Shown here: positions 1 through 4,605 of the stretch, in pieces
Numbering within the stretch: position 1 is the stretch's first letter
Layout: every line of letters begins with the position of its first letter
From: a virus
Taxonomy: Duplodnaviria > Heunggongvirae > Uroviricota > Caudoviricetes
Reading direction: 5' to 3' (one strand)
IMG/VR virus record: IMGVR_UViG_2579778778_000001
Length of the DNA: 4,605 nucleotides
The notes under the pieces: model-generated
Seen by the model: only the letters and a program-made list of their open reading frames with translations
The model's database searches: none
What the model was told of the DNA's origin: nothing
Made by a program: the position numbers and the translations under genes

Positions 1-1997
1 CGGCAAAGAAATCCGAAACTGCAGCGGCATCATCGAAGAACGCGGCGAAAACCTCAGAAACGAATGCAGCTAACAGCGCACAGGCGGCAGCGACCTCACA
101 GACTGCATCGGCAAACTCCGCGACAGCAGCCAAAAAATCAGAAACCAACGCGAAAAACAGTGAGACAGCCGCAAAGACGAGCGAAACCAACGCAAAGTCC
201 AGCCAGACGGCAGCGAAAACCAGCGAAACGAATGCTAAAGCCAGTGAAACTGCGGCAAAAAACAGCCAGGTTGCAGCAGCCCAAAGCGAGAGCGCGGCAG
301 CCGGTTCTGCGACTTCAGCAGCTGGATCAGCAACTGCTGCGGCTAACAGCCAGAAAGCTGCGAAGACGAGTGAAACTAACGCAAAGTCCAGCCAGACGGC
401 AGCGAAGACCAGCGAAACGAATGCCAAAGCCAGTGAAACTGCGGCGAAAAGCAGTCAGGATGCAGCGGCTCAAAGCGAGAGTGCCGCAGCCAGTTCTGCA
501 AGCGCGGCGGCTGCTTCTGCCACTGCATCAGCTAACAGTCAAAAAGCAGCAAAAACCAGTGAAACCAACGCAAAGGTGAGCGAAACAGCGGCTGCGAACT
601 CAGCGAAAGCATCGGCAGCAAGCCAGACGGCAGCTAAAGCAAGCGAAGATGCAGCCAGAGAGTACGCAAGCCAGGCTGCGGAGCCGTATAAATATGTCTT
701 ACAGCCGCTGCCTGATGTGTGGATACCATTTAACGATTCGCTGGATATGATTACGGGCTTTTCGCCGTCATATAAAAAAATTGTTATTGGTGACGATGAA
801 ATAACGATGCCTGGCGACAAGATTGTTAAGTTTAAACGTGCATCGAAAGCAACCTATATTAACAAATCTGGTGTGCTGACAGAGGCTGCCATTGACGAGC
901 CACGATTTGAACGTGATGGCCTGCTTATTGAGGGGCAAAGAACAAACTACATGCTCAATTCGGAAAGCCCTGCCAGTTGGGGGCGATCGTCAAATATGGA
1001 TGTGCCCGAAACAGGGACGGATAATTTTGGTTTTACCTATGGAAAGTTTGTCTGCAACGATTCTCTGATTGGGCAAACCTCAGCCATTAATATGGCATCA
1101 ATTGCTGCAACAAAGTCAGTTGATGTCTCAGGCGATAATAAACACGTGACAACCTCATGTCGTTTTAAAACAGAACTGCAGGTAAGGTTGCGTATCCGGT
1201 TTGATAAATATGACGGTAGCGCAACAACTTTTCTTGGTGATGCGTATATTGATACACAAACGCTTGAAATTAATATGACAGGCGGTGCTGCCTCAAGGAT
1301 TACAGCGAGAGTCAGAAAGGACGAAGCTACCGGATGGATTTTTGCAGAGGCAACAATTCAGGCAATTGATGGGGAGTTAAAAATAGGCTCTCAGATACAG
1401 TATTCTCCTAAGCAGAGCGGGGCAACCGTATCTGGTGACTATATTTATCTGGCCACCCCACAAGTAGAAGATGGGCCTTGTGTATCATCTTTTATTATAT
1501 CAGGAGCGACGGCGGCGACCCGCGCAAGCGATATAGTTACAGTTCCAATTAAGAATAATCTTTATAATCTTCCTTTTACGGTTCTTTGTGAGGTACATAA
1601 GAACTGGTATAAAACGCCAAATGCAGCGCCACGTGTTTTTGATACCGGCGGTCATCAAACCGGAGCGGCTATTATTCTTGGCTTCGGTCGTTCAACAGAT
1701 TACGACGGATTTCCTTATTGCGATATTGGAGGAGCTAACAGACGGGTAAACGAAAACGCATCGCTTGAAAAAATGGTTATGGGGATGCGTGTAAAGTCAG
1801 AGCAGTCTACGTGCTCAGTAAGTAACGGGCATATATCCAGCGAAACAAAAACCACATGGTCCTGTATTCAGAACACCGCAATTATCCGTATTGGAGGCCA
1901 GACTACAGCCGGGTTACGTCATTTATTTGGTCATGTCAGGAATTTCAGAATATGGCACAAGGCATTGACTGATGCTCAGGTGGGGGAGTCAATCTAA
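1..1997 (+). CDS. stf: Side tail fibre protein, lambda Stf-like, 5'-partial (first full codon at nt 3; stop TAA 1995-1997). Repeat-rich Ala/Ser/Thr/Lys shaft, then a C-terminal putative receptor-binding domain with a LamG/ConA-lectin-like terminal motif.
   Basis: The frame of track ORF 576..1997 is open without stops back to nt 3. Translation of 3-660 gives repeats such as AKTSETNAKSSQTAAKTSETNAKASETAAK, which match from memory the AKTSETNA-type repeats of the lambda Stf N-terminal shaft. The track start at 576 is an internal GTG, not the true start. The C-terminus ends ...GLRHLFGHVRNFRIWHKALTDAQVGESI, resembling the terminal strand motif of LamG/ConA-like jelly-roll domains. It is followed by a coupled downstream gene (TAATG overlap). 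Confidence 0.85.
   Translation, partial: AKKSETAAASSKNAAKTSETNAANSAQAAATSQTASANSATAAKKSETNAKNSETAAKTSETNAKSSQTAAKTSETNAKASETAAKNSQVAAAQSESAAAGSATSAAGSATAAANSQKAAKTSETNAKSSQTAAKTSETNAKASETAAKSSQDAAAQSESAAASSASAAAASATASANSQKAAKTSETNAKVSETAAANSAKASAASQTAAKASEDAAREYASQAAEPYKYVLQPLPDVWIPFNDSLDMITGFSPSYKKIVIGDDEITMPGDKIVKFKRASKATYINKSGVLTEAAIDEPRFERDGLLIEGQRTNYMLNSESPASWGRSSNMDVPETGTDNFGFTYGKFVCNDSLIGQTSAINMASIAATKSVDVSGDNKHVTTSCRFKTELQVRLRIRFDKYDGSATTFLGDAYIDTQTLEINMTGGAASRITARVRKDEATGWIFAEATIQAIDGELKIGSQIQYSPKQSGATVSGDYIYLATPQVEDGPCVSSFIISGATAATRASDIVTVPIKNNLYNLPFTVLCEVHKNWYKTPNAAPRVFDTGGHQTGAAIILGFGRSTDYDGFPYCDIGGANRRVNENASLEKMVMGMRVKSEQSTCSVSNGHISSETKTTWSCIQNTAIIRIGGQTTAGLRHLFGHVRNFRIWHKALTDAQVGESI
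171..548 (+). repeat. In-frame tandem duplication of a 189-bp (63-codon) unit inside the stf shaft (copy 1 171-359, copy 2 360-548), with degenerate partial copies on both sides and a ~14-15 codon sub-periodicity.
   Basis: Direct comparison: gcaaagacgagcgaaaccaacgcaaagtccagccagacggcagcg at 171 versus gcgaagacgagtgaaactaacgcaaagtccagccagacggcagcg at 360 (offset exactly 189). The first ~100 nt of each copy are near-identical and the remainder more diverged. Protein units are AKTSETNAKSSQTAAKTSETNAKASETAAKNSQVAAAQSESAAAGSATSAAGSATAAANSQKA and AKTSETNAKSSQTAAKTSETNAKASETAAKSSQDAAAQSESAAASSASAAAASATASANSQKA. Confidence 0.85.
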
Positions 1998-2278
1998 TGA
2001 AAGATTTAACACTCAAATTTGAAGACAGGGCCGACTTTTCGGCCTTTATGGAGAGTATTGGCTATTATGATGACGAGTCGATGCAGGATGATATTCTTAT
2101 CGACGTGATAGGTAACGTGTACAAAGAAACCGGAGAACTGACTGAAGATGGCGAACCGGTATGTGTTAAGGAAGACGGATATTTTGTAAACGTGCGCATC
2201 ATTAATGATTCGCAAATATCGTCATTATTCGATGAATACGTGGTTGCTGTTGAGCATCAACTTCGTGGCTGGATGTGA
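1997..2278 (+). CDS. Hypothetical small acidic protein (93 aa), function unknown; candidate fibre chaperone or adaptor.
   Basis: ATG at 1997 overlaps the stf stop (TAATG). GGGGGAG Shine-Dalgarno at 1983-1989, 7 nt upstream. Uninterrupted ORF to TGA 2276-2278. Asp/Glu-rich, no hydrophobic segment. Low GC like the flanking genes. I do not recognise a family. Confidence 0.7.
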   Translation: MKDLTLKFEDRADFSAFMESIGYYDDESMQDDILIDVIGNVYKETGELTEDGEPVCVKEDGYFVNVRIINDSQISSLFDEYVVAVEHQLRGWM

Positions 2279-2287
2279 GGAAGAAAA

Positions 2288-3328
2288 ATGGCTACATCGA
2301 CAGTAATTCCTGATGACATCAAAACGCTAAAATCCGACGTTAGCAAATTAAAAAACGATCAAGGAAGCTACGCAACAAAATCTTATGTAGACAATAAAAC
2401 AACATGGAATGGTTATTGCAATGTAATCTATGATCAAAAAACATTGCCAACAACTGGAACTATATTCAGCGGTAAGCTGCATTTGTCAAATAAGACTGGT
2501 GAAACGGAAAACGCTTATAGTGACATATATACCAGAAAAAATATTGATGGTACTAAAGATACAATGACGAGGATCGTCACACATAACGGGACAAAAGGTA
2601 TCTTTTGGGACTTTAGTGATCTTTACGGAGGAACTTTAATTTTTCCAGGCAGTGATGGTTACCTTAAGATGGGGAACTGTCTCATGTCGTATGGTGTGCG
2701 GGGAAGTAACGCGCTTATTAAGTTTGATAATACAGACTCATTGCAGATCAAATATGCTAATCACGGGTCGACCATGACACTAAACACGCAAGGTACGGCG
2801 TATTCTGGTGTGTCGACGTTATTATGGGGAAATTCCAGCCGTCCTGTTGTTTATGAAGTCGGTGTTGATGGTGGCGCTTATATGTTCTATGCGCAGAAAA
2901 ATACCGATAACACCTATATGTTAAGCGTTAATGGTGCATGTCATGCCACCGCATTTAACCAGCATTCCGACCGGGATCTGAAAGACAACATTCAGGTGAT
3001 CGATAATGCAACCGACCGCATCCGTAAAATGAACGGCTATACATACACGCTTAAAGAAAACGGTATGCCCTATGCTGGTGTCATTGCACAGGAAGCTCTG
3101 GAAGCAATCCCAGAAGTTGTAGGTTCCGCAATGAAATATCAGGACGGTGCGAGCGGATCGGAAGGTGAAGAAGGTGAACGTTATTACACAGTAGATTATT
3201 CTGGTGTTACTGGCTTGCTTGTTCAGGTAGCCAGAGAGTCAGACGACAGAATAACAGCACTGGAAGAAGAAAACGCAGAATTAAGACAAAGATTATCTGT
3301 AATTGAGGCGGCGCTTGCGTCTAAATAA
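2288..3328 (+). CDS. Short tail fibre or tailspike-like protein (346 aa) with a C-terminal peptidase S74-type intramolecular chaperone auto-processing domain.
   Basis: GAGGAAG Shine-Dalgarno at 2277-2283, then ATG 2288. The C-terminal ~120 aa (from nt ~2966) carry the S74/endosialidase-chaperone hallmarks: Ser227 and Lys232 in NQH-SDRDLKDNI (Ser/Lys spaced i and i+5, as in the endosialidase CTD), then GYTYTLKENG, GVIAQEALEAIPEVV, YYTVDYSGVTGLLVQVARE and a terminal coiled-coil-like ITALEEENAELRQRLSVIEAALASK. The N-terminal ~226 aa are Gly/Thr/Asn/Tyr/Ser-rich and beta-like, typical of fibre tips. Confidence 0.85.
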   Translation: MATSTVIPDDIKTLKSDVSKLKNDQGSYATKSYVDNKTTWNGYCNVIYDQKTLPTTGTIFSGKLHLSNKTGETENAYSDIYTRKNIDGTKDTMTRIVTHNGTKGIFWDFSDLYGGTLIFPGSDGYLKMGNCLMSYGVRGSNALIKFDNTDSLQIKYANHGSTMTLNTQGTAYSGVSTLLWGNSSRPVVYEVGVDGGAYMFYAQKNTDNTYMLSVNGACHATAFNQHSDRDLKDNIQVIDNATDRIRKMNGYTYTLKENGMPYAGVIAQEALEAIPEVVGSAMKYQDGASGSEGEEGERYYTVDYSGVTGLLVQVARESDDRITALEEENAELRQRLSVIEAALASK

Positions 3329-3334: not shown

Positions 3335-3357
3335 GGGGCCGAGCGCCCCGTTTTATT
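3335..3357 (+). terminator. Rho-independent terminator candidate: GGGGC (3335-3339), loop CGAGC, GCCCC (3345-3349), then G and TTTTATT (3351-3357).
   Basis: A perfect 5-bp all-GC stem followed immediately by a T-rich tract, starting 7 nt after the stop of the 2288..3328 CDS. The stem is short, so strength is uncertain. Confidence 0.55.
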
Positions 3358-3370
3358 GGGTAGGATGAAA

Positions 3371-3664
3371 ATGGATATAACACCTTTCCTTCATGCGCTT
3401 TGTGCTGTGGCTGCGCAGCTACTGATTGGTCTTTTTACCGGGAACTGGGCTTACGGGGCGATAGCCGGTTGTACGTTCTTCATTGCGCGTGAACACACCC
3501 AGGCAGAATATCGCTGGATCGAAATGTTCGGGCATGGCAAGCGAATGAATATGCCGTGGTGGGGCGGTTTTGATACACGTGCATGGGATGTGGCAAGCCT
3601 GATGGATTTTGCTGTGCCGGTGGTGGCGTGTCTGCTGGTCTGGCTGTTGGTTAATCGTGGGTGA
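3371..3664 (+). CDS. Small predicted inner-membrane protein (~98 aa from ATG 3371; alternative ATG 3365; track TTG 3356), two hydrophobic segments, function unknown.
   Basis: GGTAGGA Shine-Dalgarno-like at 3359-3365, 5 nt before ATG 3371. Hydrophobic stretches ALCAVAAQLLIGLFTGNWAYGAIAGCTFFIA and VASLMDFAVPVVACLLVWLLV flank a Trp/Gly-rich loop (MPWWGGFDTRAWDV). No lipobox or cleavable signal peptide evident. GC is visibly higher (~53% in a sampled line) than genes 2-3. Stop TGA 3662-3664. Confidence 0.65.
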   Translation: MDITPFLHALCAVAAQLLIGLFTGNWAYGAIAGCTFFIAREHTQAEYRWIEMFGHGKRMNMPWWGGFDTRAWDVASLMDFAVPVVACLLVWLLVNRG

Positions 3665-3674
3665 AAAAAGGTGA

Positions 3675-3803
3675 GCTGTATATGCAACGGAGGAAGAAAC
3701 CCCGTTGCTGGAAGCCTGGAAAAAGTATCGGATGCTGCTGAACCGTGTTGATACATCAACTGCACCTGATATTGAGTGGCCTACGAACCCTGTCAGGGAG
3801 TAA
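3675..3803 (+). pseudogene. tfa: 3' remnant (~41 codons) of a tail fibre assembly gene (lambda Tfa family); no start codon and no N-terminal part.
   Basis: The frame open from 3675 to TAA 3801-3803 translates to [42 protein letters not shown]. From memory this closely matches the C-terminus of lambda Tfa and E. coli prophage Tfa proteins (...[30 protein letters not shown]...). An in-frame TGA lies immediately upstream at 3672-3674, only 8 nt after the stop of the membrane protein gene. Confidence 0.65.
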
Positions 3804-3908: not shown

Positions 3909-4045
3909 GTATTGAATTATTTCCAGCTATTATCGATTTTACGTATTTTTTGCATGAGAGAATTTGTACCTCCTCCCAACAACGACCTTCCATGACTTTC
4001 CGGACTTCTGTGGGCCAGCGGACGATGCTGCCCTCGGATGTTGTG

Positions 4046-4605
4046 CTAATTGGGTGATGACAAATCCTGTGTATGGGTGTTTCCCTTTGTGCGTGCGTTG
4101 ATGCTGGTAACGGTGAACGTCATGATGAACACAACCGCGAATAAGACGACAATCGTCGGAGCTGGTGCACTGTCGATAAAAAAGGACAACCAGACACCAG
4201 TCATTGACACTATTACCGATATGCCAATCGCCAGTAGGAGCGCAATATGAAAGCGTTGTGTCAGGAGTACCGCAATGGCGCCAGGCGCAATGAGCAGAGA
4301 AATGGAGAGAATGATACCTACCGCTTTCAGCGTCGCCACAATGGTCAGAGAGACCATGCACAGCAGCCCATAATGCAGACATCTCGTATGCAAACCGCTT
4401 ACCTGCGCCTGTTGATAATCAAAGCTGAACAGCAAAAAATCCCGCCATTTTACGCTAATAACAAGTGTAACCAGCCCGGCAATAATCACCGTCTGGATTA
4501 TATCGCCGATGGTTACCCCGAGCATGTCGCCGAAAAGAATATGGTCAAGATGTACGTCTGGTTTGACTGCAATATACAAGATCAGACCTGCGGCAAACAT
4601 GCCAG
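4046..4605 (-). CDS. ABC-3 family (ZnuB/MntB/SitD-type) metal ABC transporter permease, C-terminal ~185 aa; the 5' end of the gene lies beyond the window. Possibly a sitD-like Mn/Fe permease.
   Basis: Minus-strand ORF open to the window edge, stop TAG (revcomp of 4046-4048). The translation is multi-TM and aligns by eye with the C-terminal half of E. coli ZnuB as I recall it, including the LFGD-L-V motif (here DHILFGDMLGVTIGD) and the following helices. Assignment within the family is from context, not sequence. Confidence 0.8.
   Translation of the reverse strand, partial: GMFAAGLILYIAVKPDVHLDHILFGDMLGVTIGDIIQTVIIAGLVTLVISVKWRDFLLFSFDYQQAQVSGLHTRCLHYGLLCMVSLTIVATLKAVGIILSISLLIAPGAIAVLLTQRFHIALLLAIGISVIVSMTGVWLSFFIDSAPAPTIVVLFAVVFIMTFTVTSINARTKGNTHTQDLSSPN

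Follow-up and report, generated by a model that had tools for sequence, protein, structure and literature searches.

The shaft of a Stf-like side tail fibre from a lambdoid Escherichia coli prophage contains a block of nine heptads that occurs in one, two or three direct, adjacent copies in different alleles of the gene, and the resulting proteins of 728, 791 and 854 amino acids (aa) differ by steps of exactly 63 aa. The two-copy gene that is our subject opens the stretch of DNA analysed here, 4,605 nucleotides (nt) of the IMG/VR virus record IMGVR_UViG_2579778778_000001 (Caudoviricetes), which we call the window throughout. We propose, with a probability of about 0.85, that the nine-heptad block was duplicated long ago and that its copies are still recombining with each other, resulting in patchwise homogenisation of the units and in the occasional loss or gain of a whole unit. 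The features on which the argument turns are collected in Table 1.

The two units, A and B, are each 189 nt long and lie in the frame of the fibre gene (frame 3, with its stop codon at 1995-1997). They are identical at 159 of 189 positions (84%), with a clear gradient along the unit: 92 of the first 100 nt match, as against 67 of the remaining 89, so that only 8 of the 30 differences fall in the head and 22 in nt 101-189. Seven of the eight head differences are synonymous and one is a replacement. Tandem Repeats Finder recovers a period of 189 with 2.2 copies and no indels over an array spanning 156-575, along with weaker periods of 21 and 42 nt. The repeat extends upstream of unit A by about 15 nt (156-170), and the partial third copy beyond unit B is recognised from an offset-189 identity of 16/21 and 15/21 over 358-399, which drops to background level thereafter. 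As a 21-nt periodicity runs throughout the shaft, the 189-nt match was compared with this heptad background. At all other multiples of 21 the best 189-nt identity is 49-62%, and in 300 shufflings of 21-nt blocks the best match had a mean of 117/189 and a maximum of no more than 132/189, in contrast to the observed 159. The 189-bp repeat is well above the background of heptad periodicity, and both Tandem Repeats Finder and the block shuffles agree with a preliminary description, made by a model from the window's sequence, that had placed an in-frame tandem repeat here. That description also called the first ~100 nt of the units near-identical; the head is indeed the more alike part (92%), but its eight differences do not amount to recent identity.

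Two long open reading frames (ORFs) in other frames, 64..579 on the plus strand and 539..820 on the minus strand, are both present in the ORF list of the window. The differences between A and B alter 24 of 62 residues in either alternative frame versus 7 of 63 in the fibre frame, which points to selection on the fibre frame and marks the other ORFs as by-products of codon composition, in keeping with their earlier dismissal as artefacts. In the lambda genome (NC_001416), 'orf206b' is annotated opposite the Stf shaft (20147-20767; minus strand, 1248-1868 of our locus L017), and its translation is of low complexity, rich in Ala, Ser and Leu, like those of the other-frame ORFs in the window. It is probably an artefact of the same kind.

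The heptads of the shaft follow the pattern x-T-A-A-K/A-x-S, with Ala at the fourth position and Ser at the seventh in 32 of 36 heptads each. All internal repeat spacings in the shaft are multiples of 21 nt, and a single 189-bp unit corresponds to exactly nine heptads. From this pattern and from the homology to lambda gpStf, we infer that the shaft forms a trimeric alpha-helical coiled coil. The Ur-lambda gpStf is trimeric, and its collar domain (1-91) is followed by a linker and then by the proximal coiled-coil domain (102-393) (PMC12617516). Residues 2-352 of the lambda orf-401 protein, which corresponds to the N-terminal part of Stf, can be aligned to residues 3-353 of the present protein with no gap. 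This collinearity, taken with the published description of gpStf and the 36 heptads, bears out the preliminary assignment of the repeat to a fibre shaft. A single-sequence AlphaFold2 model of the monomer, of low confidence (predicted local distance difference test score, pLDDT, 39.7; predicted template modelling score, pTM, 0.23), places helices at 96-217, 263-276 and 298-356. A stretch resembling the shaft heptads, '...AKTSEDNAKSSENAAKNSE...', is also found at ~130-173 of the 'Depolymerase' chains (907-928 aa) of the PDB entries 7lzj, 7vyv and 7vz3, with E ~0.002-0.003; the same heptad motif may be used as a stalk in tailspike-type proteins.

Table 1. Positions of the shaft repeat, the fibre gene and the neighbouring genes in the window
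Feature	Position	Strand	Remarks
Stf-like side tail fibre gene, 3' 1995 nt	1..1997	+	full gene 791 codons
Shaft, window portion	1..686	+	36 uninterrupted heptads, gene aa 104-355
Repeat unit A	171..359	+	63 codons, nine heptads; gene aa 184-246
Repeat unit B	360..548	+	63 codons; gene aa 247-309
Partial third copy, head only	549..588	+	~40 nt past 548
Interval with the putative CB209 crossover	188..218 in unit A (counterpart 377-407 in unit B)	+	from A/B marker bases of the CB209 allele (L005)
C-terminal part of the fibre	687..1997	+	contains a domain resembling the gene-transfer-agent head spike fibre
93-aa ORF	1997..2278	+	phrog_1361; ATG overlaps the fibre stop codon by one base
346-aa second tail fibre protein	2288..3328	+	PF13884 Peptidase_S74 at aa 227-278, E 6e-14; phrog_4563 tail fiber protein
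97-aa hydrophobic protein	3371..3664	+	phrog_1443; 294-nt hypothetical coding sequence in strain AMSCJX02 (L001)
tfa remnant (C-terminal end), 120 nt	3684..3803	+	L001 17020-17139, 'tail fiber assembly protein, incomplete'
sitD 3' part, iron/manganese ATP-binding cassette (ABC) transporter permease	4016..4605	-	PF00950 ABC-3, E 1e-40; sitD in L001

Alleles with one, two and three units

The two-copy form is predominant. Many E. coli chromosomes are 100% identical to window positions 1-2000, the exact window protein is present on 472 contigs, and 110 of its 120 best protein homologues are 790 or 791 aa long, some of them named E. marmotae by their sources. Four isolated phages (HannyBb, Tritos, PhiR63_1 and 2G7b) each give a single-piece match to window 1-2000, with an identity of 98-99.6%; among these four, two units were directly verified in HannyBb. 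A further query combined two unique anchors, one on each side of the shaft, and an evenly spaced sample of its matches included 14 that had both anchors; nine of them had the two-copy spacing, and the other five represent another fibre type, whose shaft of 22 heptads is unrelated. This second type, of 674 aa (strain B771, L018 2381-4405; also L019), shares the collar and the start of the distal part ('PLPDVWIPFND...'); its shaft of ~22 heptads is more charged and has no A or B units. About one in three two-anchor matches in complete genomes is of this type, and its frequency suggests that the shaft behaves as an exchangeable cassette. The 'short' class of two-anchor matches, with a span 315 nt shorter, was considered as a further deletion product and rejected, since it represents this different 22-heptad cassette without A/B units.

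Alleles with a single unit are best exemplified by strain CB209 (L005), in which a gene of 728 codons lies at the same sit locus as the window allele. Outside the repeat the two alleles differ at one of 549 nt upstream within the gene and at none of 1449 nt downstream (one of 1998 in all), and they are identical over the 600 nt preceding the gene. The single unit of CB209 matches A at unit positions 3, 12 and 18 but is of B type from position 48 onward; such a hybrid of A head and B tail is as expected from a misaligned crossover between A and B within positions 18-48. A second one-copy allele, from strain FFFEB2 (L008), has an intact unit A followed by a B-type head that is fused to the partial third copy, the exchange point being a 9-nt identical stretch. 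Further, one-copy forms of 735 and 738 aa, with two other C-terminal types, share 90% clusters with forms of 798 and 801 aa, respectively, from which they differ by exactly 63 aa. Three contigs carry the CB209-type protein, 3 and 14 contigs carry the 735-aa forms, and the isolated phage IdasGreatGrand also has one unit. Among 5,426 complete genomes, a synthetic one-copy query produced single-piece matches from only four strains; a larger protein collection, a non-random sample that gives no frequency, holds many one-copy clusters of 727-736 aa. Copy change is rare.

Alleles with three units are represented by three proteins of 854 aa (P0001-P0003) with the arrangement A-A-B, all of them singletons found on one contig each, in the draft assemblies GCA_016595135.1, GCA_016108505.1 and GCA_036902485.1. 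The middle unit of one such allele (L002) has B-type bases at positions 3, 12 and 18 and A-type bases from 87 onward, making it the reciprocal product of the type of exchange seen in CB209. In the other two (L003 and L004), the first unit ends in the base that normally precedes unit A, so that an A tail is followed by C and then by an A head, with the junction in a 3-nt identical stretch. As this junction between an A tail and an A head is new, misassembly of a two-copy genome cannot create the arrangement. Both A copies of each three-copy allele also have substitutions of their own, and a marker of P0002 recurs in two-copy alleles; the simplest reading is that the three-copy alleles arose by at least two, and probably three, independent events. 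A protein search for more than three units, made with the three-copy N-terminus and shaft, missed the known three-copy proteins and hence sets no bound on higher copy numbers or on frequencies. Taken together, the one-, two- and three-copy alleles uphold the earlier suggestion that repeat number is a substrate for length variation among related prophages.

The units also differ among alleles that have the same number of copies. The number of sites that distinguish A from B is 30, 27, 25 and 19 in four two-copy alleles, and in one of these (L014) a 122-nt tract of unit B (positions 19-140) is identical to A, with B-type bases at both of its ends. The ~100-nt similar head of the window allele is one state of a variable conversion pattern. 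The differing tracts and the hybrid units at the junctions support the proposal, already made in the preliminary description, that exchange between the copies is ongoing. The same description held that a two-copy arrangement with equal divergence in all relatives would indicate an old, fixed structure: most relatives do have two copies, but the divergence between their units ranges from 19 to 30 differences and the copy number varies.

Smaller length steps are superimposed on these. The 783-aa allele (L009 3102-5453) is without one heptad inside unit A, proteins of 742-752 aa retain unit A and only two heptads of unit B, and other proteins (among the P0265, P0273, P0282, P0226 and P0232 variants) have two or four heptads missing upstream. 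Overall, such further length variants differ by 1, 2, 4 or 7 heptads (the 783-, 742- and 749-aa forms; shafts of 205, 226 and 240 aa), and as all of them are multiples of 7 aa, they point to misalignment of the 21- and 42-nt sub-repeats.

Age of the duplication and exchange between units

The preliminary description regarded the duplication as recent, and a short history of this kind, in which the near-identity of the 5' part would be a remnant from before divergence, might be read from the 92% identity of the head and the fact that only one of its eight differences alters the protein. Synonymous sites tell otherwise. Between A and B, one third of these sites differ in codons 1-33 (proportion of synonymous differences, pS, 0.33; synonymous substitutions per site, dS, ~0.44; non-synonymous, dN, 0.013), and in codons 34-63 they are saturated (pS 0.68, dS ~1.7, dN 0.096). 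In contrast, the corresponding A units of different prophages are only 2-7 nt apart, and the same two units recur in fibres whose C-termini and chromosomal locations differ, as well as in isolated phages and in proteins named E. marmotae by their sources. We therefore consider a recent origin scarcely credible. The predominance of the two-copy form across loci, C-terminal types and phages likewise argues against it. The duplication is old, and with a dN/dS of ~0.03-0.06 between the units, both copies are under purifying selection. The lambda shaft was considered as a sharer of the 63-aa duplication, which would have dated the event, and was rejected because it lacks a 63-aa periodicity.

On our reading, a nine-heptad block of 189 bp was duplicated long ago and both copies would since have been kept by purifying selection. 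Because the copies are adjacent, in direct orientation and similar in their 5' parts, they could still misalign and recombine, by unequal homologous crossover or gene conversion or by slippage during replication. Three consequences can be seen: homogenisation of the copies in patches, giving an identity gradient whose extent varies by allele; occasional deletion of one unit, giving fibres of 728 aa; and occasional addition of one, giving fibres of 854 aa. As 189 is 9 x 21, every such event keeps both the reading frame and the heptad phase, and an unbroken coiled coil is still expected of its products. The one-, two- and three-copy forms would then have shafts of ~27, 36 or 45 heptads, and each unit would add or remove ~9 nm of fibre (63 residues x ~0.15 nm), if the shaft is a continuous coiled coil.

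Several points weigh against this reading. Copy change is rare, as the four strains with one-copy matches among the complete genomes indicate. All three-copy alleles come from draft assemblies, and diagnostic junction queries against the 5,426 complete genomes found no single-piece match for A-A-B or A-B-B, their matches being either joined from two pieces or of one piece at 91%; the 91% match that was inspected as a possible extra-copy allele (Ecol_545, L011) was rejected, since it has two copies, the B unit containing a tract of A type. The arrangement in L002 could also result from an assembler passing twice through a 68-nt exact repeat that the A and B units of that allele have in common. 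Some of the mosaicism could stem from recombination of one fibre allele with another, instead of between copies within one gene. The low-confidence AlphaFold2 monomer leaves the Ala/Gly/Ser-rich tails of the units unstructured, and the step from shaft length to adsorption is one that we infer. Lastly, the junctions in 3 nt (L003/L004) and 9 nt (L008) fit slippage or annealing at short homologies better than a classical RecA crossover.

Some of these points would be accommodated if the repeat were old, fixed and static, with the one- and three-copy forms being assembly errors and the identity gradient reflecting a stronger protein constraint on the first half of the unit. The overwhelming prevalence of two copies, the singleton status of the three-copy forms in draft assemblies and the low dN/dS in both halves of the unit are all in line with this. 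We nevertheless regard it as very unlikely, as one-copy forms are found in complete genomes of four strains and in an isolated phage genome, the one-copy proteins recur on several contigs, and the L003/L004 junction is not of a kind that misassembly of a two-copy genome produces. Moreover, protein constraint cannot explain either the two-fold lower synonymous divergence of the head or the allele-specific ends of the conversion tracts. A less drastic alternative accepts the same structure and dynamics and places the driver in RecA-independent slippage or in annealing by Red or RecET at the short homologies between heptads, lambdoid recombinases being candidates for the latter. The L003/L004 and L008 junctions favour it, as do the variants of 1, 2, 4 and 7 heptads, which are expected from misalignment of 21- and 42-nt sub-repeats; the junctions of L002 and L005 (intervals 18-87 and 18-48), in contrast, fall inside the long similar head, as for homologous exchange. 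We view it as a possible account, though the less likely one, and sequence alone cannot separate homologous exchange from slippage or annealing. An old duplication with copies that would still recombine remains the reading that we prefer.

The fibre gene and its surroundings

The window begins inside codon 127 of the fibre gene, with frame 3 opening at codon 128 (nt 3), and its positions 1-2000 are identical to 12001-14000 of the locus from strain AMSCJX02 (L001), inside a coding sequence (L001:11622-13997) annotated as 'prophage tail fiber N-terminal domain-containing protein'. The full-length protein matches the Pfam family PF08400 (phage_tail_N) at aa 3-132 (E 7e-67; 224 bits with a cut-off of 26.6). 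This collar domain is encoded upstream of the window in the same gene, and the fibre part encoded by the window has no Pfam match, PF08400 being seen only with the full-length gene. The full-length fibre also matches the tail protein family phrog_1419 end to end, and its aa 3-95 match the 'Tail fiber protein' chain of the PDB entries 9e7m/9mgh (E 8e-49; ~88% identity over the N-terminal 93 aa). Annotation or gene calling shows J - lom - stf in this sequence in L001-L009, L011, L015 and lambda, and in some loci without lom, stf directly follows J. The gene thus codes for a side tail fibre of the Stf-like kind and belongs to a lambdoid (Rac-like) prophage of E. coli.

The part of the fibre beyond the shaft is presumably receptor-binding. 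No gp37-like distal tip was found in the fibre; its C-terminal part instead matches the NCBIfam family NF048003, GTA_spike_fiber ('phage head spike fiber'), at gene aa 435-635 (window ~924-1526; E 3e-13; 50.5 bits with a cut-off of 36). A different distal module is joined here to a lambda-type proximal part, and it is the proximal two-thirds of the protein that belong to the lambda Stf family. The block from ~660/702 to 2000 has 80-96% DNA identity to phages without a match to the window shaft, among them vB_EcoS_ESCO3, VogelGryff, tunus and a record named Campylobacter phage C13, and the module boundary coincides with the end of the shaft.

In strain AMSCJX02 the gene lies in the order J remnant - lom - stf - 93-aa ORF - 346-aa fibre - 97-aa ORF - tfa remnant - sitDCBA, and a decayed Rac-like lambdoid prophage is represented upstream by trkG, ynaK and lysis genes. 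The 93-aa ORF is conserved after this fibre type, with the same gene order in L002-L016. The second fibre protein ends in an S74 intramolecular chaperone domain, and in other loci its place is taken by a protein of 234 aa (705 bp). The arrangement of the fibre gene, the 93-aa ORF and the second fibre gene suggests a two-protein fibre, either branched or extended. The 97-aa protein is in the ORF list as one of 102 aa, with a TTG start at 3356. The coordinates of the tfa remnant were transferred from L001 by the 13336-nt offset measured at the 346-aa gene; ~200 nt past it, on the opposite strand, is sitD, which is chromosomal DNA bordering the prophage remnant.

The fibre module is not confined to the sit locus: elsewhere in the chromosome it has pin/ynaE, Mn-catalase, dacD or appY as neighbours. 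Insertion sequences (IS) and breaks are frequent in and around it (loci L001, L010 and L013, among others). In AMSCJX02 an IS3 (L001 14344-15572) separates the 93-aa ORF from the second fibre gene, other genomes have IS3 or IS1 elements within the fibre gene itself, strain 510016 has the gene interrupted by an IS66-family element, and in strain EFF60 it is in fragments. The frequent insertions and fragmentation indicate that the fibre gene is decaying in many prophages.

Significance and relation to known fibres

The side fibres of Ur-lambda are longer than its central fibre and are probably the first to contact the cell (PMC12617516), so that their length could matter for adsorption. One might imagine on this basis that shaft length is selected and tunable, with the gain or loss of a 63-aa unit (~9 nm) fitting the reach of the fibre to the thickness of the O-antigen or capsule; we consider this improbable as matters stand. 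If it were true, the similar heads of the units would constitute a built-in 'length switch' of lambdoid phages, comparable to contingency loci. Whatever its bearing on adsorption, the natural series of one, two and three units on near-identical genes is usable for testing fibre length against adsorption, and it includes viable isolated phages, namely HannyBb and Tritos with two units and IdasGreatGrand with one. It may also serve as a guide for engineering fibres of the lambda type, as blocks of nine heptads can apparently be added or removed with frame and phase intact. At the same time, the repeat calls for caution in annotation and assembly: spurious long ORFs arise in other frames, and many database entries of the protein are partial.

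A literature search found no description of the repeat or of copy-number variation in the Stf shaft, which is a weak negative given its limited coverage. The mechanism itself is textbook concerted evolution of a tandem repeat, and variation of repeat number is already known from fibrous attachment proteins.

The closest relative in organisation is the Ur-lambda gpStf (orf-401/orf-314; PF08400 family), whose gene likewise comes after J and lom and encodes a collar domain of the same family, followed by a shaft of Ala/Ser-rich heptads that is similar in length. The two differ in that the heptads of the lambda shaft have no 63-aa periodicity, the identity at an offset of 63 being 0.32 versus 0.62 in the present protein. 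They also differ distally: lambda has a gp37-like tip and a need for Tfa, whereas here there is a domain like that of the gene-transfer-agent spike, followed by the 93-aa ORF and an S74-type second fibre, with only a remnant of tfa.

Variation in repeat number is known for the pseudo-repeats of the adenovirus fibre shaft and for the repeats of the T4 long tail fibre proteins gp34 and gp37, the latter being altered by unequal recombination. These shafts are likewise modular, with an in-phase repeat number that sets their length and with recombination that keeps the protein foldable. They are, however, beta-structured (triple beta-spiral or beta-helix), unlike the alpha-helical heptads predicted for the present shaft, which is further distinguished in that a single higher-order unit of 63 aa varies naturally in number within a species. 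Among coiled-coil proteins, the number of heptads in Lpp is said to set a physical distance, and the streptococcal M proteins are variable in length. In both, as would be expected of the Stf-like shaft, the in-frame gain or loss of blocks of heptads changes the length of the rod and leaves the fold undisturbed, although these are different proteins with a different biology.

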